A stretch of 64,000 bases of DNA, from positions 28,953 to 92,952 of the IMG/VR virus record IMGVR_UViG_3300050035_000086; one strand, 5' to 3'. Source of the DNA: a virus. Shown here piece by piece: positions 22,884-63,231 of this stretch; position 1 is the first letter of the stretch; each line of letters begins with the position of its first letter. Position numbers and translations under genes: made by a program. Below the pieces are notes generated by a model that was not told the origin of the DNA, ran no database searches, and was given only the letters and a program-made list of their open reading frames with translations.

Positions 22884-23351
22884 TCATTTTGTCTCCTGTC
22901 CAGATAATGGACTTCCCTTCTGAAAGTTTTCGAGGTAGTCTGCGGCAGCACGTAGAAGTCGTGGATCGTCGCCAAACTTTTGAATCCCCGAATTTATTTG
23001 GTACGAAAGGAGCCCACGGACGCTCGCACGGAGTAGGTCTCTCTTGACCTTTCGAATCACAAGTGATTTCTTCGCGTTGAAACCAACAAATTCAGACCCG
23101 TTATATGTTGCGACCGCTTCCCACCCCTCCTTGAGCTTGGTGGTCTCGATCTTGACCTTCTTCCATGAGTGGTCATGGTCAACATGCAGACGCCGAGTTC
23201 CTGCGGGTTTTCCGCTTACCCAGCAAAGCCCGTTGCTCCTTCTAGCCATCTCATCGTACTCGCGAAGAGTGATATTGTATGTCTTTTGGAGTCGGCGGTC
23301 GGCCTCCTTGTCGAGTTGTACTTTGGTCTTATGCTTTACTTTTCGTGTCAT
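22884..23351 (-). CDS. Recombination endonuclease VII-like protein (degenerate Zn ligands)
   Basis: YNITLREYDEM...LHVDHDH...VRGLL...N.GI..F.DD...LRAAADYL. Confidence 0.75.
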   Translation of the reverse strand: MTRKVKHKTKVQLDKEADRRLQKTYNITLREYDEMARRSNGLCWVSGKPAGTRRLHVDHDHSWKKVKIETTKLKEGWEAVATYNGSEFVGFNAKKSLVIRKVKRDLLRASVRGLLSYQINSGIQKFGDDPRLLRAAADYLENFQKGSPLSGQETK

Positions 23352-23682
23352 AAACTTCCTTTCGAACAACGCCACTGGGCCGGAGACGTGACGCTCCAAA
23401 TCTGTTTCATCGGCTTTCCACATGCCGGACAAAAAGGCGGTTGGTCGCTTATCTTGACCAGCTTCTCCGCCTTCTCTCCGCAGTATACGCATTGGTAGTT
23501 GTAAACCGGCATTTAGAACACCCTCGCAAGAGTATATCCAATTGAGGCCCCTACCAAAAGTCCAGCAATTGCCTCCCACCAACCAAAGTGGTAAACTTCG
23601 GTGGAGATCAAAGCAGAATGAATCTCCTCCATCTTTTCGTACAGCTCTTTGACAGTCAGTCTTTTCCTAGCCATGTTACCTC

Positions 23683-23889
23683 CTACTCGTTTTTCCAAAT
23701 GGTGGTAATTTCCACATCGCGTCCATCTTGGTAGTCCCCGAGTATGGAAATGAAATCTTCTACCTTCAGCTTTTTGGCCTCCACTAAGGCGGCGTCCCAA
23801 TCTTCCGCACCAATTTCTACCCCAACGTCAACCGATATTCTGCCGGTAATACTGAAGGTCTTCAATTTAGAAGCTGTTTTTGTTGCCAT
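23683..23889 (-). CDS. Hypothetical protein
   Basis: AGGAG RBS, coupled in the operon. Confidence 0.55.
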   Translation of the reverse strand: MATKTASKLKTFSITGRISVDVGVEIGAEDWDAALVEAKKLKVEDFISILGDYQDGRDVEITTIWKNE

Positions 23890-24269: not shown

Positions 24270-24583
24270 TGACCCTCCTGTCCATTATCTGGACTCGGCT
24301 CCGTCCAAGGTTCAACTGGTTTCCGTGTGGAAATATCCACCACCGGGGTCTGCTTGATATCGTACCCAAGCGGAAGGAAGTACATCGCCGCGTGTAGTTG
24401 GCAGCAGAAGGACTTCGTAACTCCTCCCTGGTTGAAGATTACTAGGTACTGAGCTTCGGAAGGAGCCTGCGCTTTTCCACTTTCAACATCATCCTTACAC
24501 CATTGTATCCGAAGAGCGGCGTTTTGTCCAGCTTTACATTCTGGATAATCACAAATAACTTCGATTGTGTTTCGAATGCCCAT
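24266..24583 (-). CDS. Hypothetical Cys-rich protein
   Basis: CDYPEC...FCCQLH; GGAGG RBS. Confidence 0.55.
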   Translation of the reverse strand: MGIRNTIEVICDYPECKAGQNAALRIQWCKDDVESGKAQAPSEAQYLVIFNQGGVTKSFCCQLHAAMYFLPLGYDIKQTPVVDISTRKPVEPWTEPSPDNGQEGQ

Positions 24584-24591: not shown

Positions 24592-24975
24592 CTAATATTT
24601 CTTCCCATTAGCCTTCATCCGGTTCTCCCGCTTGTGGTCTTCGCGAGTCTTATTGTATTCCAATTTCTCCGCGTAAGCCCCACCCAGGTCCATCCCCAGT
24701 CCAGCAGCAATATCAAAGATTCGGATGACGGCGTCAGCAAGCTCTACTTCAATCATTTTCCGGTGAGGAAGGTGGTCATCCATCAAGTTCTTCCGATGTC
24801 CCTCCATCGCCTCGCTAATTTCGCTGTGGACTAGACATAGAAGTTCTCCCACATTTCGTTCGGTCGGTTTTCCAGTTTCCAAATCTACCCACCACTTTTG
24901 ATTAATCTCGTGAACTTCCTGGGCGAGATCGTTTATGATCGCTGCTGCAAACTTTACTTGATAGTCTTCTGACAT
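24592..24975 (-). CDS. MazG-like nucleotide pyrophosphohydrolase
   Basis: LVHSEISEAMEG...ELADAVIRIFD...KLEYNKTR. Confidence 0.85.
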   Translation of the reverse strand: MSEDYQVKFAAAIINDLAQEVHEINQKWWVDLETGKPTERNVGELLCLVHSEISEAMEGHRKNLMDDHLPHRKMIEVELADAVIRIFDIAAGLGMDLGGAYAEKLEYNKTREDHKRENRMKANGKKY

Positions 24976-25487
24976 TATTCCACCTCGAAATATTTCTTCA
25001 GATTTTTGATCCCGCTATCTACTAGGTTCGCTACCTGTCTGCGGCTGATTCCAAAATCTCCGGCGGTCTCTCGCTGTGACTTCCCGTCTACGAACACGTT
25101 GTAGATTACTCTGTACTCATCCAAAGGAAGACTATAAATAGCCCCATACAATTCTTCGTCTGAGACCTCTGCAACCGGCTGCGGTATCTTCTCAGCTTGG
25201 TGCATAATCTTGGGCAAGGAGAGCGACACCAGCCGGGGTCCGGGATCTTCCTTGGTGCGCTGTGGGTGCTGCCCAGTTCGCCACAAGTCTGTGATCCGGC
25301 TTCGGCAAATTCGAGCGGCGTAAGCCTCTCCTTTTCCCTTGTCTATACCTTTTTGAACGTGATACTTCTTTTCAAGCAAGGCTACGTAGCACTCCTGGCT
25401 CAGGTCTTCCCTCTGATCGGCGGGGATTTTAAGCCGCGAAAGAACTCGCTCGATTACCGATTTGTATTTAAGAACGTCAATGTCCAT
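24975..25487 (-). CDS. ECF-like RNA polymerase sigma factor
   Basis: REDLSQECYVAL (region 2); AIYSLP...GKSQRETAGDFGISRRQV...IKNLK (region 4 HTH). Confidence 0.8.
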   Translation of the reverse strand: MDIDVLKYKSVIERVLSRLKIPADQREDLSQECYVALLEKKYHVQKGIDKGKGEAYAARICRSRITDLWRTGQHPQRTKEDPGPRLVSLSLPKIMHQAEKIPQPVAEVSDEELYGAIYSLPLDEYRVIYNVFVDGKSQRETAGDFGISRRQVANLVDSGIKNLKKYFEVE

Positions 25488-32320: not shown

Positions 32321-32355
32321 TATTCCTCCTCGTCCATTATCTGGACACAAAACAA

Positions 32356-33534
32356 TTATATCACAGCTTTGTCAGTTTCGGACAACAAATCTGCGAGAGG
32401 ATCGAAGATATTTTCGTCTGCCTGCTTCATCTTCTCTCGCGCTTGCCGGTCAATCTCGGCTTCTTCTTGGAGTCGTAGGGCGGTCGCGTCTCTCAGGGTC
32501 TTGGCTTTTTCGGCTTCCTGCTTCTGCTTCCGAGCGGAGTACGCGAGGTTGTCCACTATCTGGACAAACTTTCCAGGGGCGTACGACAGGTTTTTGGTAT
32601 CATTCAGGTCCTGCGTTTCGACCCAGGTTTTGAACGCCGACTTGATTTCCTCGGCGGTGAACTCTTTCAGCACTTCTGCTAACCGCGCCCGTTGCTTGTC
32701 TAAGAAGCATACAAGGCCCCCAGACGCGTAGGAAAGCTCCCGGACTAGGGAAACTACCTCTGGGTCTTTGGCGGAGGCTTGTAGAGGCGAATCTGACCTC
32801 AAACGATCCTCAGCGCTCTTCAGGTATGAGGAAATGGCACCATACGGAAAGTCGTCTCCTTGATTTTCCTGAATCCACTCTTCAAAGTCACGGGCAACTG
32901 CGCCGGTCCCGTGGGCGATACCGAGAGCCTTAACGTCGTCCCAGGTTCCTTTGTGGCCACCTGCCTTGGCTCCGTACTGCGCTGCAATTTTGGTAAGTTC
33001 GTCTTTCAGCTTCATAGTTTCTCCTTGTCCGTTATCTGGATTTTCAAAATCTTCTTCAGAGAAAATTTCAGCATCTTGCTCTGAAATGCTCTGCTCTGTA
33101 TCTGCTCTGCTCTGCTCTGCTATATGGCAAATTGTGGCAAGCTCTGGCAATTGCTTAGCATTTGCTTGTCGTTCCTTTGTTTTCTTCATTTTAGCCAAAG
33201 CTCCTGCTTTTCCTGCTCTGGCCCTCTCGGCTCGTACCGCATCGTCGTCTGTTCTCTGCTTCTCCAGCTTAGAGTTGACTAGAGAACCATCTTCTTGCTC
33301 TTCAAAGAAGACCTTGAGGGACGGCCAGCATTCAGACATAACTTCTACTGGGCACCCACAGATGTCTGCAAGCTCCTCTATTTTTGAAGGGATCGACCCT
33401 TCACACCACTGCTCATCCAGAAGATCGCGGTAGAGACCTCGGGCTACATAGTCCAAACGCTGAACCTTTCGGTTGGCGCGCCAGTCTCTCCACAGCCATT
33501 TGAAATAGGGCAGGGGCTCCGTATTTTTTCCCAC
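32356..33534 (-). CDS. DUF1376/YdaU-family replication initiator-like protein
   Basis: LPYFKW...DW......L....RGLYRDLLD.QW..GSIP....LA.I.G; internal repeats. Confidence 0.75.
   Translation of the reverse strand: MGKNTEPLPYFKWLWRDWRANRKVQRLDYVARGLYRDLLDEQWCEGSIPSKIEELADICGCPVEVMSECWPSLKVFFEEQEDGSLVNSKLEKQRTDDDAVRAERARAGKAGALAKMKKTKERQANAKQLPELATICHIAEQSRADTEQSISEQDAEIFSEEDFENPDNGQGETMKLKDELTKIAAQYGAKAGGHKGTWDDVKALGIAHGTGAVARDFEEWIQENQGDDFPYGAISSYLKSAEDRLRSDSPLQASAKDPEVVSLVRELSYASGGLVCFLDKQRARLAEVLKEFTAEEIKSAFKTWVETQDLNDTKNLSYAPGKFVQIVDNLAYSARKQKQEAEKAKTLRDATALRLQEEAEIDRQAREKMKQADENIFDPLADLLSETDKAVI
33077..33167. repeat. Iteron-like and pentamer repeats inside the initiator gene (candidate origin)
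   Basis: TGGCAA three times at 10-bp period (33125-33150), next to a (CTCTG)n tract at 33077-33121. Confidence 0.5.
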
Positions 33535-33581: not shown

Positions 33582-33619
33582 ATTATACTACCTGTTTCAT
33601 GGGAATCCATTATCCGGAC
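33582..33619 (-). promoter_or_regulatory. Candidate promoter of the replication operon with the 15-bp motif over the -35 position
   Basis: TATAAT at 33587-33582 in an intergenic gap; motif at 33605-33619. Confidence 0.5.
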
Positions 33620-38415: not shown

Positions 38416-39249
38416 TTAAGTCTCTCCATTGATCTCCTCAACCTTCTGTAAGTATGGTACCACAAATCCCGACGGTTGTCCACTATATGTCACAATCAAC
38501 TTCTGTTCGGCACGGGAACACGCCACAAAAAAGCAGTTCCGTTCGCCTTCGAGATCGGTAGATTTGGAATGAGGTAAAATACCTTCTTGGCAGCTTACTA
38601 GGAAAACCGAGCGCCACTGAAGGCCCTTGGCACTGTGGATTGTTCCGAGGGCCACCCCCTTCTTAGCCCGAGAGGCGGCGGCAACTCTTCGTGTAAAATC
38701 CAGGAACTCTTTTATCGACCGGTACTTACCTGCCATTTTTATCAAGTCAGACAGGTTCTGCAAGGGGTCATTGTCAATGGTTTCTTGTTCTGCAAAATGG
38801 TCTCCAACCTTCAAAGCTCCGAGCACCTGTTTGAGGGCATCAGAGGGGGGAAGGTCTCGGTACCTAGACAGAGAGTGGACGAACTGGACGAAGTGTTGTA
38901 GAGCTTCCACGTTTTTCGGATCAACTAATGTTCTTGGTTCTTTGGTCAGTAGTGTCCAATAGGAGACCTGATCGTCAACTGCTTTTAGCTCCTTGAAACG
39001 CGCGCTTATTTTGGTTTTTGGGAGAAACTTAGTTGGGTGAAAATCGGAGTGGAGCATTCCTGAAATCAAGTAGTTTGCCGGGAACAAGCACGCTCCTAGA
39101 TAGGCCAGACTCGATTTGATTTCAGGCTGCGAAAAGAAACCCGCCCGGTTGATATAGTGAAAAGGAAGATTGGCATCAGACAGAGCCTGCTCAAATGGCA
39201 TCAGCGCTCGGTTGGTCCTCGCTAGTATTGCAGTCGTGGGTTTGTCCAC
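38416..39249 (-). CDS. uvrD: UvrD/PcrA helicase, C-terminal half
   Basis: AILARTN, TIHSAKGLQW..VF, ERNCFFVACSRA. Own GGAG RBS and GTG start. Confidence 0.85.
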   Translation of the reverse strand: MDKPTTAILARTNRALMPFEQALSDANLPFHYINRAGFFSQPEIKSSLAYLGACLFPANYLISGMLHSDFHPTKFLPKTKISARFKELKAVDDQVSYWTLLTKEPRTLVDPKNVEALQHFVQFVHSLSRYRDLPPSDALKQVLGALKVGDHFAEQETIDNDPLQNLSDLIKMAGKYRSIKEFLDFTRRVAAASRAKKGVALGTIHSAKGLQWRSVFLVSCQEGILPHSKSTDLEGERNCFFVACSRAEQKLIVTYSGQPSGFVVPYLQKVEEINGET

Positions 39250-40059
39250 TATTGTTCTCCCGGAATCCGGACAATCTTCCCGTCTTTCCTCAGATATACC
39301 ACCCCACCGGAGACCAGAAGAAAGTCCTTGAGTTGTGAGATAGTGAGGTCATCCGGGGCAACTACGCCTTCTTTTGTCATGGTCCACATACCTGTATCCA
39401 AGTAATCGGAGTATTGTCCAACCGTCGCCTTTACGGGCTCATGGTTCTCCTTGCATTTCCAGCAGAACCAGCCACCGTAGGATTTATTTGCCGATACGTC
39501 ATTATGACATTTGCAATCACAATTTTCCATTATCTGGACTCCTGTTCAAGCTCTTCCCCGTCTTTAACGCACGTCGCACCTTCTATTCTGATAGACCCGT
39601 CAACTGTCCATCGTTTGGAACACCTAGAGCAATAGTAGGTAGTCCAATAGCTTTCGTACCTGTCGTAGTTGCCGGTGTTGGCTCCGTACTCATAGCGTAC
39701 GTTTTGTGGTGGGTGTGGGCAGGCTTCTTGGAAGGCGGAAATTTCTTCGAGCGCCTTCTTAATTTTAGCCTTTAATCGTACGATTGTTTTGTCCATTATT
39801 CGGACTCCTTTTCCGGTTTTGCCGACAAAACGCCCTCTTCAATCATGTAGTTGTTTGGGTCAAAGATCAATGGTCGGATTCGAACAGCTTCTACTTTCAT
39901 AGCCGCAAAAATAGCCGCCTGTCGAATCTCTGAAGGGGTGTAATCTCCGTTCCAAAGTAGACCGGTCATTGTATCTACCAGAATCCGATAGTGAGGATCA
40001 TCTGCATACTTCTGTGCGGCAGATTCCTTAAAGGGTGTGAACTCGTATCGACCGATCAT
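39249..40059 (-). other. Three small coupled hypothetical ORFs (39249-39530, 39530-39796, 39796-40059) inside the split helicase locus
   Basis: RBSs and TAATG stop/start overlaps; two of these overlaps are formed by the 15-bp motif. Confidence 0.6.
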
Positions 40060-40343
40060 TGTTTGTCCTCCGACTTGGTGTGCCAGTAGTCGTAGTAAAT
40101 TTCTATCGTGTACTTCGCAGTAGGTAAGTCGAGATTGCCTAAATACTCTCCTTGCTCGTTGTAAATACGCTCGGACTTGAACTCCTTTTCATTTTTGTCC
40201 ATTATTCAGACTCCCAATACTCATTTAGCAGAATAATAAGACGGTGGACATCTCTTTCGACTTTCTGGTGATCCACATCGTCGTAGTCGATGGATAATTC
40301 CAAGTCTCCAGGTCCTACGATCACCAGAGCTTTATCGTACCGA

Positions 40344-42328: not shown

Positions 42329-42895
42329 ATTTCATTTCCAGACAGGGTTACCCACTTACCGTAAATAAACCGCAGTTCTTTGTGGCAATCTCCACAAACT
42401 ACCGTGCATTTCGATCCTCCACCGCTTATCATCACTCCTCCTTATCCAGAATGGAATCAATCAGGTCAGTATCGTGAGCGGCATAATTCCAGATCTTGTA
42501 TGCTGGAACCTTGAATACGCGCACAACACGATCAGGTCTGCACACCTCTATTTCGGCGTCTCCTGATTCTCCAACGTAGTAAGCTCGGACATTGTGGCCC
42601 CTGTATTCGTTTGTGCTAAAAACCAGCTTGCTCATTACTCCTCCTGTTCAGAAAATGGACTAGGCTCCGCTTCTTCTCGTAAAGAGATAAACGCAGCCAG
42701 TTGTTGAATCAATTCCTTCCCGTGTTTGTCTAGTTTGGAGGATACGTAGCAGAGTTGTCCTTCTACCTTGTCGTGGTCGAACTTACAGGCTTCGAGGAGA
42801 CTGTAGCCGAGTTGATTGAGAAATTCGGCCTGCTCTTGGTCGTCGGCATCGCCGAAGGCGCGTTGAATCACGCTTAGAATTTTCATACTTCCTCC

Positions 42896-46445: not shown

Positions 46446-46476
46446 AGGCGATCTCCTTTGTCCAGATAATGGACGG

Positions 46477-48598: not shown

Positions 48599-48616
48599 TT
48601 TTCTCCTTCTGCTTTC

Positions 48617-48626
48617 ATTATAGCAC
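48617..48626 (-). promoter_or_regulatory. Extended -10 promoter element upstream of recT
   Basis: TGCTATAAT in an intergenic gap, followed by AAGGAG. Confidence 0.5.
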
Positions 48627-48839
48627 AGTTTTCAGTTTTGTACGAACTATTTTAAACGCCAATCACCGTTTGTCCGGTTAATCGGGCAGTTACTTCCTGC
48701 ACAGTTCCTTTGATGGTAACAGACACTCCCGCCGCTGTGGCTAGGTTACAAACTCCGACCAGAGGATTGGGCAGCACAAAGGCCACCTGATCCGGGTTTA
48801 CTTGCGCGATCTTCCCGTCTTGCTCGATTTCTACTAGCT

Positions 48840-49301
48840 TCATAAGCTCTCCTTAATAATTGTGAACTTTGTATTTTTGTGTGCTGCTTTTTCCCTTAAC
48901 ATAACAGAGGCTCCGGTGAAAAACTTAGGAGTTACCTCCCAAACATCGGCGCACATATTCGGGACGAAGGCATCGGCAATTTCGTAGGACATTCCAAGAC
49001 CCTCAGCCGCCTCTATTTTATCGATGATCATAGGAAAATCACGGTCCCAGAGTACGCCGGAAACATGAATTGCTTTTCCTTTGAGTCGGGCGCTGGTGAT
49101 TACCCCTATCTTGCGTTGCGCGTCGTGCCCAGCGAGGTCGTCTCTTGCGTTGATTCCTTGCCCTTTTAGGGTGGTCACTGTTCGTCTGGTTCCCTCCGGG
49201 GACAAAAATACTTTATGTCCTCTAGCTCCTGATGGAGACGCGGAGCTAACTTCCCCCAGGCGCGCAAGTATTCCTTCGAATTTGAGACGGTTAGTTCTCA
49301 T
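48840..49301 (-). CDS. Prohead-protease-like protein (HK97/assemblin fold)
   Basis: GHD..RKIGVI..A......IHVSG.LW..DF...GLGMSYE...FTGASV....AA. Confidence 0.55.
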   Translation of the reverse strand: MRTNRLKFEGILARLGEVSSASPSGARGHKVFLSPEGTRRTVTTLKGQGINARDDLAGHDAQRKIGVITSARLKGKAIHVSGVLWDRDFPMIIDKIEAAEGLGMSYEIADAFVPNMCADVWEVTPKFFTGASVMLREKAAHKNTKFTIIKESL

Positions 49302-49339
49302 TGCGCCTTCTTGTATAAGGATGTCATGGTAGTCTCCTA

Positions 49340-49370
49340 GTCCATTATCTGGACTAAGAGTATTATAGCA
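49340..49370 (-). promoter_or_regulatory. Extended -10 promoter with the 15-bp motif at the predicted +1
   Basis: TGCTATAAT at 49370-49362; exact motif at 49354-49340; then TAGGAG RBS. Confidence 0.55.
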
Positions 49371-49619
49371 CATCTACCCGTTGACATGAACCACAAAACG
49401 CGACTTACACCAGTTGCAGTATCCGATAAATATATGCCTCCCGCCTTGGTCAAAACCATCTTCCGGTATCCGTCCGCAAACCGGGCAGTATCGCGCGGGT
49501 CTCTTGTCGCGCTCCTTTCTCTCCTCTTCGTCGGCGCAAAGAGAGGCTTCAATCCCCTCTGGAGAGTATGGGTCGAGTCCGGTACGGAAATATTCTATTG
49601 ACCTCTTTTGCGCCATTGT

Positions 49620-50985: not shown

Positions 50986-51627
50986 TTACGCTTGGACATT
51001 TTCCTCCTTCACTTTATCGTACATCTGAATACCCCAAGTAAGAGCATAGCAGCACCAGATGAATCGGTAGGTGTACTCTCTGAGGTCCCATTCCCAAGTG
51101 TCGCTGAACTCGAAAGTATGGCCTTCAATTTTGCAAGAGAAGTCACGCAAAGACTCGTGAGCCTCGTGCTCGTTGTCAGAGCGTCGTAACACATCTTCCT
51201 TGACCCACTCCCACAGTTCGTCAGTTTGGTCCTCGGTCAGAGAGTAGTCCGCGATCCACTCCTTGGTGTGTTCGTTGACCAGTTCTTCAAATTTTTCAGA
51301 AGAGAACTCACGGAAGTTGGAATCGTACCCGTCTCGGTCAACCGCCTCTAGCTTCTCTCCCCAATACCCAAGGTTGATTCCAAGACGATCTTTATATCGC
51401 CGGTCTGTCCGGAAGAACTCAAACATATCATTCAGTCGCGAGAATACAAAGCACCCCATATCCCCAGAGTAGGCGAGGTATCCAGACCACGTTACAATGT
51501 CGAACCTCTGGTTCCAAGACCCATTATTTGAAAACTGGAGGTGTCGGTAAACGCCGTCGTCCTTCAGGATTTTTATCGAGTGGTTGGCTACGTCTTTCAG
51601 GAAACTCTCTTCAGTTGGTTGGCTCAT
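50986..51627 (-). CDS. Conserved phage hypothetical protein
   Basis: DDGVYRHL.F...FDIVTW.G.L.YSGDMG.FVFSRL.DMF.FFR. Confidence 0.65.
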   Translation of the reverse strand: MSQPTEESFLKDVANHSIKILKDDGVYRHLQFSNNGSWNQRFDIVTWSGYLAYSGDMGCFVFSRLNDMFEFFRTDRRYKDRLGINLGYWGEKLEAVDRDGYDSNFREFSSEKFEELVNEHTKEWIADYSLTEDQTDELWEWVKEDVLRRSDNEHEAHESLRDFSCKIEGHTFEFSDTWEWDLREYTYRFIWCCYALTWGIQMYDKVKEENVQA

Positions 51628-52375
51628 CGGTCTCCTCAACTTTCTCCACCAAACTTGGCAAATGTGAGAAGTGCTCAGGATCAATCTGCGGGTCAACCTC
51701 TCGTAGCAGTCCGGTTATTACAGAGGCCCATCGTTCTTCGGTGGTGCGACCGATACTTGTTCCGCCGAGAATGTGTCCGTCTTTGAAGCTCTCTGTGGAG
51801 ATTCCATTCAAATCCACACCGTCCACCAACCGGGCCAGAACGGCACCCAGAGAGTCAAGTGGAATACGAAAACCGCGCTGGTAAAACTTGAGGACGCGAA
51901 GCAGACTACCCCCGCTATCCTCATTCCGCTGTGGAGACCTATACACCAACCTCTTAGCGGCGAGGTCCGCGTAGAACTCATCATCAATCAGACTTGTCCA
52001 TTTCTCGGACTCGAACCAAAGGGCCGAACAGGCGATAGTAAAGTCGAACGACTCAATCAAATACTGCGGGGTTGGGAAGGACCACCGATGGATGTACTGC
52101 ACGAAAGGTCGGGGAGTCAGCTTTACCGAAATTGCGTTACCGGTTTCGTACGGCTTCTTCTTCGCTTCGTCTGCTAGTTCTTTCGCGAATAGCTTTGCGT
52201 CTTCTGGTGTCTGCGTGAACAAGTCTAGGTCATTAGGCTTTTCCCCAGACACCATCGAGCGGATATACCCGCCGCCCAGGACAAGTCGGGGTCCGTACTT
52301 AATCATTTGGTTTCGCAGACGGACAGGCAAAAGCCGGACCGCCCAATTCAGATCATGTGGATTTAGTTCTCGCAT
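51611..52375 (-). CDS. Nucleotidyltransferase (CCA-adding/poly(A) polymerase head-like)
   Basis: LGGGYIRS....KPNDLDLF, FDFTI, LLRVLKF..RGF. Confidence 0.75.
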   Translation of the reverse strand: MRELNPHDLNWAVRLLPVRLRNQMIKYGPRLVLGGGYIRSMVSGEKPNDLDLFTQTPEDAKLFAKELADEAKKKPYETGNAISVKLTPRPFVQYIHRWSFPTPQYLIESFDFTIACSALWFESEKWTSLIDDEFYADLAAKRLVYRSPQRNEDSGGSLLRVLKFYQRGFRIPLDSLGAVLARLVDGVDLNGISTESFKDGHILGGTSIGRTTEERWASVITGLLREVDPQIDPEHFSHLPSLVEKVEETDEPTN

Positions 52376-53647
52376 TCTTCCTCCTCCACGGTCCATTTAG
52401 TGGACAAAAGTTCCTCTATGTAAAACCCGAACGGCTCTGGATTTTCTCTTTCACTGTTTAGAAGCATACCCTCGTCGTCCATTACGGCCACGAACCCGTA
52501 CTCGGACACGAGCTTCTTCTTGGGAGTCATTCTTTTCGCCGCATCAATGATGTTCATTCTTCTCCTTCTTCTACAACAGTATTATAGCACGACTTGCAGA
52601 GCAGCAGTCCATTATTCGGATCGAACAACTCGTCAGTCAGGTCTCCGCACCCATCGCAGTACTCATCTTCCAGTTCCGGCCCGTCGTCCGGGCTTAGGAG
52701 GCCGCAGTACTCCGGTTCGCTTTCGCTCTTGTATTCTCGTTTGCTGGTAGCGCCCATAGCCCCCCTAAGTGAACATGTACAGAGAATCATATTCTCCGCT
52801 GTACAAAACTCCACAGCGATGGAGTTCGATTAGCTCGTCTTCGGTTGCGACGGCGAGAAGGCTGTCGGGACTCGTGTCCAAATAGATTTCGTCGTATCCG
52901 GCGTCCGATACAATGTCAGAGTTTCCCGGAACTAGCTTGTCCAGTAGCAGGAAAGCATGAAGATCCGGGCGGTTGGACAGCTTGTGCGTAACACGGTTAA
53001 ATTTGAGAAACTCGTCTTCGTGTTCCTCGTAGAAGCTTTCTAAGTCGGTAATCATATCTTCCTCCGTCCAGATAATGGACTACTCGCTCCTTAGAGCGGC
53101 TCTGTCTTTTTGGTCAATGTGTTCGATGAACTGGGGAGTAGCTCCGCGTTGGAGCAAGTCCTCGGTCTCGTACTTCTTTTTGTCCAAAAGGCGTTTCTCC
53201 AAGCGTTTTACCTTGCGTTGGAGCTTCTCGATTTCCTTTTGCTGCTTGGTGATTATTTCGGCGTCTGTCAAGCTGGTTTCAGCGGTCCTGGTCCGCCGCC
53301 TCCTTCAATGAAGTCTTTGTAAATAGTCCACGTCAGAAACCCAAATGCAAAGATACAGAACACCAAAGACAACCAAGGGGCGTTCAGAAGGCCGAAGGCG
53401 ACTCCGAATACGAAACAGACATAACCCATTACGCGAGATTCAAGAGAGGTCATTCCTCCTCCTCGGGTGTCAATTCGTTCGTATAGTCTTGCAGCAAGTC
53501 CCAGATGTGCGCTCTGATTCCCTGCTGCCGGATAGCTTGGTTAATGCTTTCGTTTCCGAAGTCGGTATCCGGCTCGGATTCGTAGGCTTCCATGATTTCG
53601 TCTACTAAGGTTTCAATGTCCATTTCTCTCCTTGTCCATTATCTGGA

Positions 53648-54046
53648 CTAGTCCCACAAATCTCCGTACCATTTTGCAAACAAGTGGAGGCCCTTATTTT
53701 GGGTTTTGGTAAGTTCTTTGAGTTGACCCCTGTTTTCATACTTAGCGTCGGCTATGGACCGAGAAGCGAAGAATCCCACTTGAATTTCAGTAAGAATCTT
53801 GTTCCACTCTTCTTCAGTAATGCTCATCGGGATAGAGTGGGTATGATACTTGAGGTGGCCAATTGCTTCTGGAAGGACCTCATTCAAGTAGTCATACAAA
53901 CTCCAGGTATCGCAGTTCGCCCACCCGCGAAGACCTCTCTGGACGAAATACTTCACAGCGTAGCAGTAGGTCTTGGGACTGAGGTACTGTTTCCACCAAG
54001 GCCAGCAGAACGTTCGGTATTCGGGCTTCAAACCAAAGTAGGGCAT
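53648..54046 (-). CDS. Conserved phage hypothetical protein
   Basis: DTWSL..YL...L...I..L...EEW..IL.EI...F...GL.LFAKWY..LWD. Confidence 0.65.
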   Translation of the reverse strand: MPYFGLKPEYRTFCWPWWKQYLSPKTYCYAVKYFVQRGLRGWANCDTWSLYDYLNEVLPEAIGHLKYHTHSIPMSITEEEWNKILTEIQVGFFASRSIADAKYENRGQLKELTKTQNKGLHLFAKWYGDLWD

Positions 54047-54260
54047 TTCATTCTCCTATCCATTAGCTGGACTAAATTTAAACCTCTTACTGTCAAACCC
54101 CTGCCAGTCGAAACCAAACGGACCTGGACCAAGGTGAATTGACAGACCGAACAGCCCAATGGTAACACCCCTGGAAATTCGACTGACAAATATTCCGTTC
54201 CGTCGAACCAAAGGATGCTGAACCCAGGCTGAAATTTTCATTTGTTCCTCCAATGTTGTC

Positions 54261-54287
54261 AGTATACCACATTTCGAGTAATTGCAA
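54261..54287 (-). promoter_or_regulatory. Candidate extended -10 promoter downstream of polA
   Basis: TGGTATACT (54269-54261) followed by GGAGG and ATG. Confidence 0.4.
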
Positions 54288-54297
54288 GCAAAATATC

Positions 54298-56520
54298 TCA
54301 ATCTTTTTTATATTCTTTTGCCTCATATCCAGCCGCTTTTAGAGGTATGCCGTCGGGCATCCAAGACGGTTTCTTCGTCATGCACTCACACAGCTTCGCT
54401 ACGGTTAGAGGCGAGTTCTCGGGAACCAAAGTGATAAGCTCATCGTAGGTACTTCCAATAATCTCGAACCCCGCTTGGTCGGCCTCGTGCATCCCGCTAA
54501 CCAGGATGTCTCTCGCCCACGACTGGTCGGCATTTTCAAAGATTTTCCCCCCGTGCGTCGGAACTCTTCCCCAATGGGTGGAATTTTGCTCCTTGCCATA
54601 GTAGGAGATTTTCTCGCTGGTTATTTCTTTTCCATTCCAGACATACTTCTCTTCCTCCAGGGTCGGGTCCAGATAATGGATACTCCGCCCACTCGGGAGC
54701 TTGAGTTCCAAGACCTTGGCTCCGTGGCAAAGAAAAGACACGACGGGATCATATATTTTACGACCTTTTTCGGCAAACCACTCTTCTTCTCTTTTGGTAT
54801 GCGGGACCCCTACCCCGAACAGCTTACCGGGGTTCTTGATGGCGCGTCTTGCCGCCCGTTCCATGTCCTTCCAGGTCCGGGGTATCTCTGGATACACAGA
54901 ACGGAAAATATCGATGGCTTTGACTGCTTCTTCTCGGGTCATCACGACGCCCATCGTGCGCGCGTAGGCCAACAACCCTGTCCATACTTTGTTTCCACCT
55001 CCCATAACAGAGCCACACTCCGGGCAAAGGGGAGGCAGGGGTTGCTTGTAGTTCTTCTTGAGTCCACACCGGGAGCACTCCCACTCGTAGAATTCGTCTC
55101 CGGCTCCTAGCCCAAACCCAGAGCCAAGGGTGGCAGGTTTGCACATAGTCCGTTTGGCTTTGTTTCCGCGCCCTTCATCATACTCAGCTTCCAGTTCTGC
55201 ATACGTCATTTTGTAGAAGTGCTGTCCAAAATCGAGGTAAGGGTCTCGTCCTTCCCGGAAAACACGAAGTACGGGGTCGCTGTGAGCGATAAAACCGGCT
55301 CCAACGTTTTCGATTGCCGAGAGATCAGCCGTCACCAGCTTCATTCCCTCGGGGGCACGAAACGCGGCGCGAACTGTCGAACCAACTACGTCAAGTGGCT
55401 TTCCAAACTCCTTCAAAATGGAATCATAGTCAGCGGAGCGGACCAACTCGATGGCTCGCTGCATATTTTTCTCGACATACTTTACCGGCTTCGGAAGATT
55501 TCCCATGTTGACGCCGTGCGCAGCCCAGCGGCCCGTCCTTGCTGCTCCCATGAAGGTGTACTGGTGCCGCAGTCTCCCGTCCGCGCTCACCATGTCCGCG
55601 ATGTTGGTGTACTTCCGTACGGCGGACTTAGATGTTTGTCCACGCAGTAGTAGGGCTTCTTTCGCTTCCTCGGTGAGGTCACATTCGCCGGACATTGCCC
55701 GGGCCACGAAAGGTTTACCAAGCGAAGAGAACCCGTAATTATGCTCCCGAAGCCAAGGCAAAATCTGGCTAACAGAATTTGGATTGTCTAAACCGGTGAG
55801 TTCTTTGAGGCGGGCGGTGAGTCGTTCCATCTCCTTTTGGGTGATGAATTTTCCACCGTTGACCAGAGGCATGTCAACGCTCCAGCCGGTTTCGTTGATC
55901 TTCTGGTCCAAAAACCACGCCTCCCATTCCTGGTCGGGCAGGGGAAAGTCCTTCAGCTTCTTTACGGCAATAGTTCTTTCAGCTTCTGTGTCTCGTATGC
56001 CATACTTACAAAACAAGGCCCAGTCCTCTGGGTCTGTGTTCCAGTCTCGGTAAGAGGCGGCGCTGAGGCCAAACAACGTGTCGTTCCCCCCGAAAGTTTC
56101 GGGGGAGCAGAACTTCTTGATGAGACGTTTTCCTTCTTTTAGTTTAGCTTCTGATTCTTTAAGCCCTAAAATTTGACCGGCTTCGTCTAGTCCTCCGGGC
56201 AAGGACAGGTAGCGCGCGCGGACCATCGAGCAGCGCCACTCGTTGATTGGTTTGTGGATTCCCAGAAAACGACGTGCTGCATTCCTCTCGAATTGCGCAC
56301 CCCAGGCGTTGGCAATCACAAACGGGTCCATCAAAGCCTCGACCAATTCAGTGGGGGGCTTAGGGTCCAAATGAGGTTGCCATAAATGGACACGCCCATT
56401 ATCGATGGCGTGCTGGCTCATGATAAGTTCAGTAGAAGGGTCATCAAAATAATTAGCGAGGCCGACAACTTCCAAGTCAGCCTCGCTTCGAGTCTCCACG
56501 TCCCAATGTAGTTCTGTCAT
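54298..56520 (-). CDS. polA: Family A DNA polymerase with 3'-5' exonuclease
   Basis: DVETRS, AQFER, YGIRD (exonuclease); GAARTGRWA, ADLSAIE (A), R..CK...LG.GFG (B), FENADQ..ARD, YDEL (C). Confidence 0.92.
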   Translation of the reverse strand: MTELHWDVETRSEADLEVVGLANYFDDPSTELIMSQHAIDNGRVHLWQPHLDPKPPTELVEALMDPFVIANAWGAQFERNAARRFLGIHKPINEWRCSMVRARYLSLPGGLDEAGQILGLKESEAKLKEGKRLIKKFCSPETFGGNDTLFGLSAASYRDWNTDPEDWALFCKYGIRDTEAERTIAVKKLKDFPLPDQEWEAWFLDQKINETGWSVDMPLVNGGKFITQKEMERLTARLKELTGLDNPNSVSQILPWLREHNYGFSSLGKPFVARAMSGECDLTEEAKEALLLRGQTSKSAVRKYTNIADMVSADGRLRHQYTFMGAARTGRWAAHGVNMGNLPKPVKYVEKNMQRAIELVRSADYDSILKEFGKPLDVVGSTVRAAFRAPEGMKLVTADLSAIENVGAGFIAHSDPVLRVFREGRDPYLDFGQHFYKMTYAELEAEYDEGRGNKAKRTMCKPATLGSGFGLGAGDEFYEWECSRCGLKKNYKQPLPPLCPECGSVMGGGNKVWTGLLAYARTMGVVMTREEAVKAIDIFRSVYPEIPRTWKDMERAARRAIKNPGKLFGVGVPHTKREEEWFAEKGRKIYDPVVSFLCHGAKVLELKLPSGRSIHYLDPTLEEEKYVWNGKEITSEKISYYGKEQNSTHWGRVPTHGGKIFENADQSWARDILVSGMHEADQAGFEIIGSTYDELITLVPENSPLTVAKLCECMTKKPSWMPDGIPLKAAGYEAKEYKKD

Positions 56521-56535
56521 CTTTTCCTTTGTCCA

Positions 56536-56904
56536 TTATTCGGACGGTTTTTCCAAAATCACGGAAGCGTAATAGTTTCCTTCTTTGACGACAACGGGCC
56601 GGTCTTTGAGAATTTCTCGGACGGCCTCAGCGCGCTCGGGGTAATTCTTATCCCAAAGTCCCGAGTCAATGTCCAAAACTACGCTTACCCACTTGACGGG
56701 TTTTTGAGTCGTGGGCGGAACTAGAGGATCGTCAATCGCGGAGAAGTTGAGCGAGTAATAGGATTTTCCACCTAGAGCAAAAGCAATGTCATCCAAATAT
56801 CCGTAGTGAGTTCCCAGATCGTGTACCGAACGTCCCTCGTAGTCTCCTTCGGTGGTTACGTGCCACCAGCCTAATGCTTTATACTGCTTACGGCTTCCGC
56901 TCAT
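56536..56904 (-). CDS. Hypothetical protein
   Basis: AAGGAG RBS; WHVTTEGD.EGRS..DLG...G..DDIAFAL motif. Confidence 0.6.
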   Translation of the reverse strand: MSGSRKQYKALGWWHVTTEGDYEGRSVHDLGTHYGYLDDIAFALGGKSYYSLNFSAIDDPLVPPTTQKPVKWVSVVLDIDSGLWDKNYPERAEAVREILKDRPVVVKEGNYYASVILEKPSE

Positions 56905-58149: not shown

Positions 58150-59526
58150 TGTTCCTCCCTTGCTCGTTTTCTGTACTGGTCCAGAGAGGCGAGCACCCGG
58201 GGTTCAAGAAAGATCACGTTGTCCGCTTCTAGTTGCTCATGGTGGCCGGTCGTGAGCATAATGCTCCCGTCTTCTTCGGCGGTCGCGTAGGCCCCGTCCC
58301 CGAGATATTGTGGTCCGATCATACGCCCTCCTCATCTTCAGCAGTTGTAGGAACGCGCTCCTTGTATCGGGCTATCCACTTTCGACCAGACACTATCGCT
58401 TCATGTTTGCGATCTGCATCCACTCCTTCTACGGCCAGAGCCGTCACACATTTGGTGATTGCTTTCACCGCTGATGCCAATTCTCGATTGCGATTGGTCA
58501 GCGCCATGATAAGATCGTCAATCAACCCTTGGTCAAATTCACCCATCTCTCCTCCTAAACCTGGAACATCTGTCTGTACTCGAAGTAGTCTTTCGCATCC
58601 GCCGTGAAACGTTCTTCGACTGACCCCGGACGTTTGTCTGCGAAGACATACCAAGAGTGCATGTGTCGAATTCCGCGCGCGCTCTTGGCCATCTGATTGC
58701 AGAACTCGTTTACGAAGATCAGGAGTTTGGTTTCGTTGTCCATTATTTGGATTCCTCCGGTTCTGCCTGTCTTCCTGTTGGGTTTCCGTTTGCATCAAAG
58801 CAGCTAAACAGATGTGTGGGAAGATGTACATACTTCCCAGTTGGCTGCGGGTCGATATGGACCTTGGACTTGTTCTTCTCAATTGGTTCTCGGCAGTATT
58901 TGCAGATCACAGCGCCTCCTCTACGGTCTTGCGTTGATTGCTTCGTTCTTGTGCAGAAAGTTTCCGATCACATCTACTGCTGGGAGGTCTTCCTCAAAGA
59001 TCAGTGATCCGGGGTAAAGCGGAGCACCCCCTTTTAGGTGGTTGTATATGTCGGTGAGCAAGGCGATGACCTCGTTAAGTTGCAGCTTAGCCTGAAAAAG
59101 CTGGTCAAGGTGCGAGACGTATCCATCTCCTGGCCTCGACTTCTCCCAAACTTCATCCCAAATTGGGTGTCCCGGCTTAATTCCGTTTACCATTACTCCT
59201 CCTCAAAACTACAACTACTTTACCACGTTGGTGCTGTTGTCGTTATCGCGAGAGTGCCTAAGGGTTGAGGGCGGAATACGCCGTTGACGTGCACTGATCC
59301 AGTAACCTTGTCGCTTCTTCTTGAGATAGGTCATAAGCACGCGAGAAAGATCGTATTACTTCCAGCGCCTTTTCAAGCTGGCCGACGCGCTCTTCAAGGT
59401 AGCGATTTCGCGCCAACGCTGCGTCAAGCGTTCCTTTAAGGCTTACGTCGGCAATGCGATTTAGATTTGTCATTCCGATCCTTTCATAAGGCACTGTAGT
59501 GCCAGCGTTTGTGTTCCTTATCTGGA

Positions 59527-60651
59527 CTACACACAGTCTACCACGTTGTCTGGCGTTTGTCCAGAGGATTCAAGAATTTTTCGGACACGGTCTTGCTGTC
59601 CAGCTGTGATGGCTGAGTAGTATTTCTCAACAGTCTGACACGAATCTCCGATCAGCTTAGACACGTCAAACAGCGAAGCGCCGCGCGCTAGGAGAGAACA
59701 CACGAGCGTTGTGCGAAGTTTATGCGGGAAGCAATCCTCAACTCCGGCACACTTCCCCAACCGGGCAAGCATCTTGTACAACCGCGCCCGAGTTAGGCCA
59801 CCAAGGATAGGGAGGTTGGAGTTCTTATCCGCCGGGACTGCGCTGGCTAACCTAAGCAGCAATTCTCCGTGTAGCGGAATTTGCACCCAGGTCCGTCTCT
59901 TTTTTGTCTGCCAAGTCAGCGTCTTCGTTGTCCAGTTAATGGACGACCACGTTACCGCTGCCGCGTCCGATCCACGCATACCCGTCCAGCGGAGCAGAGC
60001 AAAGGGTAGCTGGTCCTCATCTGTTAGGCAGGATTCTAGGCGTTCCATTTCTTCCGGGGTAAACGGAACCGCGTCCGGCTTCTTCTCTTCAGTCTTGTGC
60101 TTGATCTTTAGGGGCGACTGTCTGATGAGTCCTTCTCCCTGGGCGAAGTTGAAGACCGACTGGAGCACTGTGTAATCGGTCTGGATTCCTTTTCCGTTTC
60201 CGCCGCGCTTGAGTATGTCCTCTTTTCGCTGGACCAGATAATCTTCGACTCTTGCAGAGGAAATATCCCCCAGAGTTTTTACGTCGTGGTTCGCGAGGTA
60301 CTGGAAGAACATGGTGGCAGTTCCGGCATACAGGTCCCGGCTGCGCTCAGCCAGTTCTCCCAACTTGACTCGGCGGTCCAACTTGTCGGTGAATGCTGTT
60401 TCAAATTCGGACAATTCAGGACTGGGTTTGATGCCTCGGTTCGCCGTGAGGATTTCCCACGAGGCTTTTGGAAGCACCGTCTTGAGCGTGTGCCAGTGGT
60501 TTGACTCAGGACCCTCGGCTAGAGCGGCCCCGATCTGGCGAGAGAGGGTCCGAGCCGCTTGGGGAAGACGAGTCCCAAGAGAAAATCGGAGGCGTTTGCC
60601 CCCGACAGTCTCCGAGAAAGTGTATACTTTTCCGCGTTTAACGATTGTCAA
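59527..60651 (-). CDS. int: Tyrosine recombinase / integrase
   Basis: LLRWTGMRGSD, QTKK, PHKLRTT, VSKLIGDS...VEKYY; N-terminal arm-like segment and SAM-like core. Confidence 0.88.
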   Translation of the reverse strand: MTIVKRGKVYTFSETVGGKRLRFSLGTRLPQAARTLSRQIGAALAEGPESNHWHTLKTVLPKASWEILTANRGIKPSPELSEFETAFTDKLDRRVKLGELAERSRDLYAGTATMFFQYLANHDVKTLGDISSARVEDYLVQRKEDILKRGGNGKGIQTDYTVLQSVFNFAQGEGLIRQSPLKIKHKTEEKKPDAVPFTPEEMERLESCLTDEDQLPFALLRWTGMRGSDAAAVTWSSINWTTKTLTWQTKKRRTWVQIPLHGELLLRLASAVPADKNSNLPILGGLTRARLYKMLARLGKCAGVEDCFPHKLRTTLVCSLLARGASLFDVSKLIGDSCQTVEKYYSAITAGQQDRVRKILESSGQTPDNVVDCV

Positions 60652-63231
60652 CTTCTGCTCCTAAACCCCTCCGGTCGAGTTCGCTATACACTAGCTCACA
60701 CCATGAACCGAAGTTTATTCCGTTGTAGTCCCAGCCATCGTCGTCGATGTTATGCAGGAGAGCTACCCAAGTTTTGACCAATGCAGCATCGTCTAGCCCG
60801 TCCACGATCTTGGCCGCATTCTCCCATTTGCTGTGCGATAGGAGCGTCATTGTTTCCTCCTTGATTAATCTTTCCAAAGTTTCTTGATGAGGGAGTTGAT
60901 CTCCCCTTCGTTCAGGGGAGAAACTTCATCGAAGATTGGAGCATCTGTTGAAAGGTGGTGGTAGTTCCCATACTTGGGCCGAATCTCTTCCTGGAACAAA
61001 CGAAGAGAGTGAACGATGGTGTGTATCTCTGCTTTGGACAGCTTCATGTCTCCTCCTTGGTTAGTCCATTATCTGGACAGGTGCGTAATCCATCCGAAGG
61101 CAGCTAGCGTCAGAACAAAACCCCAGGCCGCAGCCCCAATTAACACAAGTTTAAACAACAAGTTCCAGAGGTTTTCGCGACGCCAGATTACGGACATAAA
61201 CAACAGGATACTTGTCGAAACCGCCAGATACATAGTCATTTCTTCCTCGCTTTCTTCTCCGCTGCTGTAGAGGCTTCTTGCGTCGTGGCTGTGAGCATTA
61301 AGCAAACGCCCTCGCGGAATTTTCCTCTTCCAATTTCAATCAGCAGGTAGCCGCTCCAGTAGTCTACTAATTCGTTGGTGGTCATTTCGGATAAGGGTTT
61401 CATCTGGCCCCCTTCTTGGCTTTCTTCTCCGCACGTTTCGCCGCTACAGCTTTCAGCACGGCGAGATTGTAAATCGAAGCGGGGGAAATGTCAAACGCTA
61501 CGCGCATTCCTTTGAGTCTTACCTTGACTCCGTATGGAGAGAACTCCATCATCACGGGTCTCAGCCGCCCACGCTCACGTACCGCGTCCGAGAATTCAAC
61601 CGATAGCCTCGTTTTGCGTTTGTCAAGCGCGGTCATTTGCACCCTCGGATAAGCAGGATCGTCACGAGAACCAAACCCCAAAAGAGGATACCCAGGATCA
61701 GGCCGTTTAGGATTCCGATAGCGGCGTCCATTGGGTTCTCGTGCTCCTCGACAGGCACGTACAGCGGGCTTCTGTCTGGGTCCCGGAAGCGGTCGTAGAC
61801 TTCGTTGGTGATACGTTCGGTGTCGGTCATTCTCTCTCCCCGTGTTGGTTGGGCATACTCAGGTTCCCAGTTTGGAGGTATCTCTCCAAGGCAGACCCGG
61901 AGCAGCGGACTCCGCAGAATATCACAGCACCCTCTCGCTTAGCAACCACCGGGTCATACGGAAGAAACGACAGCGCCGTGAGGTTTCCAGACGAGCGGCG
62001 GGAGGCCACAGTCGGGACCGCCAGAGAGTAGGCTCGTCCAGACAGAGGCCGGTGGCAGATTTTACAGTTCACTCGGCCTCCAATTCTTCAGAGTCGTAAG
62101 GCACGATCTCGTGGTTGCAAACCGGGCAGCGGTCGTCGCAAGCGCAGGACCATTCGTCGGACCAATCGGCAGCGGGTTCTTTGTCCGCGTATGGTGTGTC
62201 CTCATGGTCGCAGTGGTAGTGGTTGATAAAGCCTGTCTCGAAAGAACTCATTTTGTCCTCCTTCACTCCAATCAGTAGTAGCTCATCCGCACCATGCTTT
62301 CGCTGAGGGTCTGGAGTATGCGGACTTGGGGCAGGTTCGCCCCGTTGGTTAGTGGGTGCGCCGGTCAGGAAAAGGAACTTCAATCGTCTTTCCCCGGCTT
62401 TCGTTATGCCATTCTCCGATAGCCTTGCGGTTGGCTTTGTTCCGGAGGTTGGCCGCGTCCTTGACTGCTTGGCGTTGCCTCTTCTGTTCTGGTGAAGCCT
62501 GAGCGCGAAAGTCCGAAGTCAAGCTGTTTTCCTGCGCTGCTGGTTTCATGTTTCTTCTTTTAGAGCTTCTTGTGCTCTCTTAGCCGCTCGGCCTCTTTTA
62601 CCGCCTCCTATGCGGGGCGTTGGACCTGTCTCCGTTTCCTCAAGTTCGTCTATTGGCGAACTGCATTGTCAGTACGCGGAGAGACCATTTTCGGAAGCGG
62701 CTAAGGCAGCACACGCCGCCCGTCCATTATTCGGACCGTCTGGTTACGCCTTAAGTGTCACGTCCGGGTTCTCCAGGTACGACCGTGACACGGCGATCTT
62801 GGCTTGCAGTTGAACGCGTCGTTCGTTGCTGATTGCCTGAGTCAGTTCCAACTCAGCAGCCTCAATTTCAGACTTGAAAAACTCGGGAGTGTAGCGTGGT
62901 CCGTTCATTGTGCTCTCGTTTCTGTCCACTAGCTGGACTTGTTGAACTACAATCAGTGTAAACCAGTTTGGCTCGGAAGTCAAACTATTTCTGAAAAGTG
63001 TTTCCGACCGCACCCGCACCGATCAGAAACGCAGAGCGTGTGCTTTGACTTCTGACAGGCCGCGCAGATAAACGCGGGTTTCGGTTCCGCCGTGAGGACT
63101 TTTGCTTTGCCCCTAATCACGTCAGACAACGATCTGGCAGACAGAGAACGGGCAGAGGTCCGGCTTATGCGAGAGGGTACGCGGCTGTAGGCTTGGACTA
63201 GCATGTTACCGCTTCCCGCCACTCGGGCCAT
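60638..63231 (-). other. Cluster of small early hypothetical ORFs
   Basis: Closely packed 60-100 aa ORFs with GGAG RBSs. Confidence 0.5.

Follow-up and report, generated by a model that had tools for sequence, protein, structure and literature searches.

A 15-bp dyad repeat at the gene boundaries of an uncultivated phage family: a candidate protein-binding site on duplex DNA

Introduction

Why should a short repeat stand directly in front of one ribosome-binding site after another in a phage genome? The question is raised by a 64,000-nucleotide stretch of DNA (hereafter, the window), which spans bases 28953-92952 of a virus record made up of a single 92,952-bp contig (IMG/VR IMGVR_UViG_3300050035_000086), and in which a 15-bp element, GTCCA-TTATC-TGGAC, repeatedly abuts Shine-Dalgarno (SD) sequences. 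The element consists of inverted arms, GTCC(A)/(T)GGAC, that flank a TTATC/GATAA centre. The record is classed as linear in IMG/VR, with a CheckV completeness estimate of 86%; its genes lie on the plus strand up to about position 17273 of the window and on the minus strand from 17342 on (NB: positions refer to the window unless marked as genome positions). An earlier inspection of the window (the original prediction) listed 13 such sites, and offered two explanations: start-associated regulation, comparable to the start-associated sequences (SAS) of cluster K mycobacteriophages or to a 5-bp hairpin beside the ribosome-binding site (RBS), or accumulation of the sites in the least constrained bases at gene junctions. 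Here, the element was traced through a family of related phages, and the reading that we favour, to which we give an even chance, is that it is a binding site for a protein on double-stranded DNA, kept at high density and placed where it is least costly.

Dispersed short repeats at phage gene boundaries, such as the Cluster O repeat, the cluster K SAS and the stoperators, have been known for more than a decade; to our knowledge, a function has been demonstrated for the stoperators only. For comparison, dozens of relatives from metagenomes were available here, with more than 360 unique copies between them.

Results and Discussion

Abundance and conservation of the element

Exact GTCCAN5TGGAC dyads occur 23 times in the window, against 0.06 expected, and when up to three mismatches are allowed the number of matches rises to 58, which represent 55 distinct sites (1.3 expected). 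The whole 92,952-bp genome carries 74 distinct copies, 24 of them exact, where chance would supply one or two. Relatives were found by an exact 15-mer scan of IMG/VR, which returned at least 105 stretches; at least 69 IMG/VR stretches carry 0.3 or more sites per kb (about 0.002 per kb is expected by chance), and their proteins are 40-98% identical to those of this phage. Across the family the density is about one copy per 1.2 kb and the consensus is GTCC-RR-ATAAT-GGAC, with a purine at positions 5-6 in every case. In the motif logo the information drops off sharply beyond the 15 bases, the flanks being almost uninformative, and no SD sequence forms part of the motif; the SD comes after it.

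The motif itself served better as a probe than the protein of the gene labelled polA in the original prediction, which, used alone and with exact 8-mers required, retrieved no relatives. A scan of genome contigs with the exact motif gave lone hits scattered over all phyla, as by chance, and pointed to no host or prophage. Nine look-alikes within 2 kb of a Nitrosopumilaceae metagenome-assembled genome (L166:2099-3997, 66% GC) were rejected as a coincidence: they belong to tandem repeats of a protein, where GTCCAGATAATCGAC happens to encode V-Q-I-I/V-D, and the region has no phage similarity. The motif sequence was absent from the searchable literature in a full-text search, and a nucleotide search of deposited phages with positions 46000-56600 of the window gave no match.

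Copies at junctions are better conserved than their surroundings. Their identity to relatives is 0.90, compared with 0.76 for the 40-nt flanks, and the corresponding values for copies within genes are 0.77 and 0.70; a leave-one-out rule was used in this comparison to offset the way in which the loci had been ascertained. At orthologous tandem junctions the presence or absence of the motif is concordant in 91 of 94 cases, the remaining three being threshold cases. Moreover, the copies are spaced more evenly than random (coefficient of variation 0.76 vs 0.98, P=0.007). A search for clean 15-nt presence/absence indels found one case. Distant orthologues of the gene that has the copy at genome position 7545 align over this copy with no indel, keeping the S-I-I-W residues but differing in synonymous codons, which indicates that in-gene copies of this type arise by substitution and not by insertion. 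By these comparisons the copies appear to be selected and not neutral. Thus, the proposal that sites accumulate in the least constrained bases at junctions is borne out in one part, the placement at gene boundaries described below, and gives way in the other, neutrality, in view of the identity values, the concordance among orthologous junctions and the even spacing.

Position relative to starts and stops

Genes were called with a home-made caller based on open reading frames (ORFs), codon-usage log-odds and SD sequences, a crude procedure on which the assignment of starts depends; with it, the genome holds 162 genes and is about 91% coding. We define d as the number of nucleotides between the end of the motif and the start codon, and u as the distance from the upstream stop codon to the motif. 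All 13 sites of the original prediction were recovered as motif, SD and start, in that order, on the minus (coding) strand, with d between 10 and 16. When the distances to starts were compared with uniform placement, 16 of the 74 genome copies lay at d=8-16, where 1.16 were expected and the maximum in 2000 simulations was 6. The first inspection had overlooked one such copy, at 20248 (d=12), as well as a second register, where the start codon is the ATG of the motif itself: at d=-6, occupied by seven genome copies, this ATG is the start, the TAA of the motif is the stop of the upstream gene, and a GGAG overlaps the first G. No genome copy lies at d=0-7 or at d=17-30. The relatives agree: among their unique copies (n=304, from at least 69 stretches), 58 (21.8%) are at d=8-16, against 1.9% at random, with a peak at 10-13 nt, and 15 are at d=-6.

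Nearness to starts is, however, a property of the minority. Only 23 of the 74 genome copies (about 30%) are associated with a start, while 48 (65%) are fully coding, 17 are intergenic and nine overlap a gene in part. Contact with the preceding stop codon is at least as conspicuous. In the pooled data the motif's TAA is the upstream stop in 29 copies (u=-10), a TAG overlaps the first G of the motif in 30 (u=-1), and the motif follows the stop at u=0-3 in 35; in total, 94 of 363 pooled copies are flush with a stop or overlap it, compared with 10 expected. Tandem gaps with 20 nt or more of slack leave the motif room to lie elsewhere; in these, 24 copies are stop-flush against 6.0 expected (P<1e-5). 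Sixteen copies were found at convergent junctions, which have no start, and for 10 of them the distance to a stop is 3 nt or less. Where a neighbouring gene differs among relatives, the motif is about as often retained with the gene downstream (13 of 45 cases) as with that upstream (13 of 38; background, 15-16%). Start-associated regulation in the manner of the cluster K SAS is therefore not supported as a general rule, given the share of copies near starts, the stop contacts, the convergent copies and the like behaviour of downstream and upstream genes.

These observations bear on how RBS contact is to be read in general, since a selected DNA site that is packed into a compact genome can come into such contact for that reason alone. 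The controls that separate packing from a start signal, namely stop association, convergent junctions and linkage to neighbouring genes, are applicable to the mycobacteriophage cases also. For the present element, placement at gene boundaries in a compact genome suggests that the abutment of SD sequences is mainly a consequence of packing and not a signal read by the ribosome.

Duplex DNA or RNA hairpin

The motif stands next to SD sequences in either orientation, as had been noted: 42 copies in the pooled family data read GATAA and 30 read TTATC in the sense strand. The 5-bp hairpin proposed to act beside the RBS was not supported by comparison among copies. Compensatory changes number 0-2 per pair against 12-19 broken pairs (for pair 5, 19 broken and none compensated; for pair 1, 12 broken and two compensated); pair 5 is Watson-Crick in 213 of 361 pooled copies (59%), the others being left with a 4-bp stem of about -3.4 kcal/mol; and the spacer is conserved to the same degree as the arms, whichever strand is transcribed. 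An excess of G.U over A.C in the sense strand (114:66) seemed significant and was discarded, as it only mirrors the general 65:35 bias in orientation, to which the ratio at pair 5 (98:47) is equal. An Rfam search of the window gave no match.

A second element in the same genomes provides a contrast. It is a hairpin whose GGATT loop is invariant and whose 4-7-bp stems are fully variable in sequence yet remain paired through compensated changes; it is preceded by an A/C-rich CCCGT(C) stretch and followed directly by the SD and start. The GGATT hairpin abuts the SD of 29 genes, compared with 2-7 for control loops, and in 20 of these 29 the 15-bp motif is found 8-13 nt upstream, mostly in the GATAAT orientation. 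Examples upstream of the window are at G000:C1:15475-15525 and G000:C1:26649-26704 (G000:C1 being the phage record in genome positions), and in relatives at, for example, L005:10354-10410, L047:6040-6107, L060:5060-5130 and L102:330-400. It has the appearance of a structured leader for structural genes. Also upstream of the window, at G000:C1:25490-25645, about 130 nt of noncoding DNA with long inverted repeats precede the gene at genome position 25673; the segment is highly conserved in L103 and L104, ends at a copy of the motif flush with the SD, and may correspond to a structured RNA.

A putative protein-binding site placed where it costs least

Independence of orientation, lack of covariation, conservation and family-wide spread are all observed, as are the positional statistics, and they are the properties that a site on duplex DNA would have. 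The binder would most likely be a dimeric protein, probably encoded by the phage. In a genome that is so densely coding, a site maintained family-wide at a high and fairly even density would be fitted between a stop codon and the next SD, as the least costly places; copies would overlap stops, either through a TAG on the first G or through the internal TAA, and sometimes supply the start (TAATG), and others would be written into tolerant codons through synonymous choice. The few strong sigma-70-like promoters have the site across the transcription start or the -35 zone; bound there, a protein would act as a repressor, and elsewhere it might be a roadblock or an organiser of the genome; repression of early promoters, a block to transcription and genome organisation are thus candidate consequences of binding. 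If the binding protein were found, it would mark out a system that regulates or organises the whole genome in this uncultivated family of phages.

Several observations weigh against this reading. Where the gap has 20 nt of slack or more, SD-flush copies are also in excess, 20 against 10.8 expected (P=0.003), and the SD-flush register, with its peak at 10-13 nt, is very sharp; such a register, together with the one at -6, is also what tight packing would give, being the minimum spacing with room for an SD. The polA start retains the motif in L020, L050 and L051 although the genes upstream differ. Starts that have no motif show no dip in conservation just upstream of the SD, so that a simple model of substitution tolerance, which would need a lax zone there, does not by itself predict where the motif lies and was set aside; the tolerance in question would be one of insertion or extension. 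About 65% of the copies read GATAA in the sense strand, a mild directional bias that would not be expected of a pure dimer site. The majority of copies are remote from promoters, and for the comparable Cluster O repeat a transcriptional role was doubted by its authors on the same ground (PMC4351075). As for the binder, no classical helix-turn-helix repressor was found in a Pfam search of the 95 small proteins of the window, and searches of the genome for HTH_3 and ParB (ParB_N) were negative. The roughly twofold excess of SD-flush copies in roomy gaps and the retention of the motif at the polA start keep a local, start-linked effect in play, as a residual possibility for some starts, polA among them.

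Promoter context and the promoter reading

Extended -10 elements of the form TGnTATAAT were located in the phage and its relatives. In five cases the motif centre is between +14 and +16 relative to the -10 end, which means that the motif covers about +1 to +15 of the transcript; in four it is between -21 and -34, where it falls on the -35 zone or on the spacer. These positions resemble those of operators. The nine promoter-linked copies all have the GATAA orientation; they were found at 76 TGnTATAAT elements, many of which are chance matches, and most copies of the motif are not at promoters. A scan for consensus promoters and terminators added little.

It is possible, though unlikely, that the element is itself promoter-like, the ATAAT core with its GTCC/GGAC flanks forming a -10-type element from which transcripts start a few bases downstream. 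The reader would be host sigma-70 with a phage factor, or a sigma-like protein of the phage, and the leader would be 10-16 nt long with the SD directly after. The family consensus does contain an RATAAT hexamer with the critical A2 and T6, and 65% of all copies have GATAAT reading into the gene, a preference that is 27:10 where the GGATT hairpin is interposed between motif and SD (d=31-45). The phage also encodes a 170-aa protein (24975-25487, minus strand) that matches sigma-70 region 2 (E=3.6e-5) and region 4 (E=1.1e-4) near, but below, the Pfam cut-offs, and that is conserved in L082 and L041 (82-84%) and in L059 and L009 (about 40%); it is a probable phage-encoded minimal sigma factor. The Pfam hunt for binders, over 10 + 10 + 95 proteins, yielded only this sub-threshold protein, NUMOD3 and HNH. 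On the other side, 30 of the 72 SD-flush copies have the opposite orientation; 65% of the copies are in genes, and one third of those would drive antisense transcripts; at d=10, initiation about 7 nt past the hexamer would land within the SD; no -35 partner of the motif is conserved; and the copies at TGnTATAAT elements flank, downstream or upstream, a promoter that is already complete. The bolder proposal, that the motif is a single-element promoter, or promoter plus operator, built on the ATAAT core, read with the phage sigma-like protein and firing at the RBS, strikes us as slightly less probable again. Were it true, some 20 genes per genome, and more family-wide, would have their own minimal cassette for starting transcription and translation, and, as the cassette also encodes the stop of the previous gene, it would amount to a compact gene-boundary code in a large uncultivated family.

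Translational and recombinational readings

That the transcribed element tunes initiation of translation at the adjacent RBS, whether as a small hairpin or as an operator to which an RNA-binding protein attaches, with the TAATG copies enforcing translational coupling, we regard as improbable. The sharp registers, with their peaks at 10-13 nt and -6 and the empty interval at 0-7 nt in this genome, would fit such a role, as would a predicted hairpin energy of -3.4 to -5.5 kcal/mol, a hairpin that in the -6 class would cover the AUG, the persistence of the motif at the polA start across relatives, and the five promoters that put it at +1 to +15 of the transcript. The two orientations found beside SDs would, however, form two different loops, the arms do not covary, the fifth pair is often broken to leave a 4-bp stem, and the spacer is conserved irrespective of strand. 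In addition, 70% of the copies are away from starts, those in convergent gaps included, and the association with stops is at least equally strong. The cluster K SAS has four defining features; three are lacking here, and the fourth, the distance to the start, is found in part.

A third possibility is that the 15-mers mark module boundaries, serving as micro-homology for cassette exchange among related phages, perhaps through the phage RecT, or that they spread selfishly, in which case their place at junctions would be a trace of how they came in. The copies at 53634, 54058 and 56531 coincide with points where similarity to relatives ends, the phage encodes RecT and endonuclease VII, and recombination between repeats has been reported for the Cluster O repeat (PMC4351075). 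Alignments end within 10 nt of a motif in 21 cases, against 7.8 for random positions; for random gene junctions, however, 33 would be expected, so that the signal belongs to junctions and not to the motif. The single clean presence/absence indel, the origin of in-gene copies by substitution and not by insertion, and the stable presence at orthologous junctions all speak against such traffic, and neither the even spacing nor the copies within conserved genes would be explained. We therefore put the probability of this reading low, on a par with that of a role in translation. A repetitive extragenic palindrome (REP)-like element, which would be restricted to extragenic space, is at odds with the 65% of copies that are within ORFs.

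Comparison with known phage repeats

For the putative protein-binding site, the closest analogue, though not a homologue as judged by sequence, is the 17-bp repeat of Corndog and other Cluster O mycobacteriophages, TGTTCGG-N3-CCGAACA, with 7-bp arms and a 3-bp A/T centre (PMC4351075). Its 34 copies are divided into 14 intergenic, 10 at 5' ends and 10 intragenic, four of them near promoters; their orientation has no evident meaning, their positions are conserved among relatives, and a dimeric binder has been proposed (PMC4351075). The two elements share dyad arms, an A/T-rich asymmetric centre, tens of dispersed copies found across relatives, a mixture of intergenic, 5'-proximal and intragenic locations, the lack of an orientation rule (about 65:35 here) and a small number of copies at sigma-70-type promoters. 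The element described here differs in its unrelated sequence, in its arms of 4-5 bp, in a longer, strongly conserved asymmetric core (ATAAT), in about twice as many copies per genome, and in its setting, an uncultivated phage family with a strong-SD host instead of actinobacteriophages. It also goes beyond the Cluster O repeat in that it supplies stop and start codons and is stop-flush as often as it is SD-flush.

The cluster K SAS, to which the element had been compared, is asymmetric, contains the SD core (GGGATAGGAGCCC; AGGAG), occurs in a single orientation, lies upstream of starts in 119 of 125 cases and is confined to the non-structural half of the genome (PMC3203893; PMC12699233). A short repeat a few bases from many starts, upstream stops that are sometimes inside it, and conservation (across subclusters, in the mycobacteriophages) even where genes differ are features in common with the SAS/ESAS. 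Unlike the SAS, the present motif is devoid of an SD, dyad-symmetric and found in both orientations, in genes for 65% of its copies, and genome-wide.

Stoperators of cluster A mycobacteriophages, the sites of L5 gp71, are asymmetric 13-mers that keep one orientation with respect to transcription and to which a known immunity repressor binds. They resemble the present element in having many dispersed copies across transcription units, often in short intergenic gaps, and they offer a precedent for a genome-wide array of protein sites outside promoters; they differ from it in that the motif here follows no orientation rule and the phage has neither a repressor match (HTH_3, ParB) nor a sign of lysogeny. 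Stoperators are also mentioned in PMC3203893.

On paper, the element could also recall the boxB of the lambda and P22 nut sites. The 15-nt format is the same and GAUAA resembles the P22 loop, GACAA. BoxB is a 15-nt RNA element with a 5-bp stem and a pentaloop, present twice per genome and in the sense orientation only, and it acts as RNA; in contrast, the motif has 74 copies, 35% of them antisense, a fifth pair that is broken and no covariation.

Individual sites and neighbouring genes

Six of the 13 sites have d=10. The copy at 22898..22912 (minus strand, exact, TTATC in the mRNA), with AGGAG and an ATG at 22887, falls in the last codons of the upstream endonuclease VII-like ORF, the stop of which overlaps that ATG; the copy at 24280..24294 (minus, exact, GATAA in the mRNA), with AGGAGG and a GTG at 24269, sits within the C-terminal codons of its upstream ORF. 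Both are conserved in L082 and L041. At 42646..42660 (minus, two mismatches) the motif is followed by AGGAGG and an ATG at 42635, and is conserved in L025. A TAG from upstream overlaps the first G of the exact copies at 53066..53080 (minus; GGAGG, ATG at 53055; conserved in L078 and L050) and at 53634..53648 (minus; AAGGAG, ATG at 53623). In the copy at 56531..56545 (minus, two mismatches; AAAGGA, ATG at 56520) the internal TAA is the stop of the gene at 56536..56904; the gene that starts at 56520, for a product of 740 aa, is the one labelled polA in the original prediction.

Three sites have d=11: 32332..32346 (minus, exact; GAGGAGG, ATG at 32320), which begins 8 nt past a TGATATAAT extended -10 element and has its centre at +16 from the -10 end; 33027..33041 (minus, two mismatches; AAGGAG, ATG at 33015); and 54058..54072 (minus, two mismatches; AGGAG, ATG at 54046). 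The ATG at 33015 is the in-frame codon 174 of a 392-aa ORF at 32356..33534 (minus), and the homologues in relatives begin at that Met. This ORF has an N-terminal DUF1376 fused in frame to the module that starts at Met174 in L010, L025, L080 and L009; with a motif and SD of its own at Met174, it represents either a gene fusion or an internal start. Upstream of the same ORF, a copy with two mismatches at 33605..33619 (minus) has its centre at -30 relative to the end of a TATAAT -10 element, in the -35 zone.

At d=12, the exact copy at 49340..49354 (minus; TAGGAG, ATG at 49327) is 7 nt past a TGCTATAAT extended -10 element, with its centre at +15, and L050 shares the layout. The ATG at 49327 opens a 9-codon mini-ORF (MTSLYKKAQ), the stop of which overlaps (ATGA) an in-frame ATG of the ORF at 48840..49373. 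The segment at 49301-49368 (minus) thus combines a TGCTATAAT promoter, the motif at about +1, an SD and a mini-ORF, an arrangement like that of a leader peptide or of translational coupling. The overlooked copy at 20248..20262 (minus, exact), where the upstream stop TAG overlaps the first G, leads to the ATG of the gene at 19402..20235. The remaining sites of the 13 are at 46460..46474 (minus, exact, d=14), 2 nt past an upstream TAA, with AAAGGAG and a GTG at 46445, and conserved in L025; at 52391..52405 (minus, three mismatches, d=15), with GGAGGAGG after 3 nt and an ATG at 52375; and at 61064..61078 (minus, exact, d=16), where the internal TAA is the stop of the ORF at 61069..61239 and AAGGAGG follows after 5 nt, with an ATG at 61047. 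A further copy with three mismatches, at 52607..52621 (minus), has its centre at -33 relative to the end of a TGCTATAAT extended -10 element, in the -35 zone.

The second register is exemplified on the minus strand by 39525..39539, where TAATG is both the stop of 39530..39796 and the start of 39249..39530 and a GGAG overlaps the first base, and by three more copies with a TAATG stop/start within the motif: 39791..39805, with a GGAG overlapping the first G, 40197..40211, and 58738..58752, with GGAGGA upstream. On the plus strand, the copy at 1494..1508 (one mismatch) lies in a divergent gap, and its internal ATG is the called start of the gene at 1503..1883. The exact copy at 17324..17338 is in the convergent gap between the plus- and minus-strand blocks, 3 nt from the stop of the gene at 17342..17557; it adjoins a terminator-like hairpin with a T-run, has no SD or start close by, and is kept in L082 with one mismatch.

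Among the neighbouring genes, those on the minus strand for a RecT-family recombinase (47243-48598), an AAA+ protein that is clamp-loader- or RuvB-like (49620-50549) and the endonuclease VII-like protein (22884-23582) are assigned, by similarity, to a phage recombination and replication module. At 638-1249 (minus), on the strand opposite to the surrounding structural genes, there is a gene for a clear homologue of Mom, the DNA-modification protein of phage Mu (Pfam Mom, E=1.2e-30).

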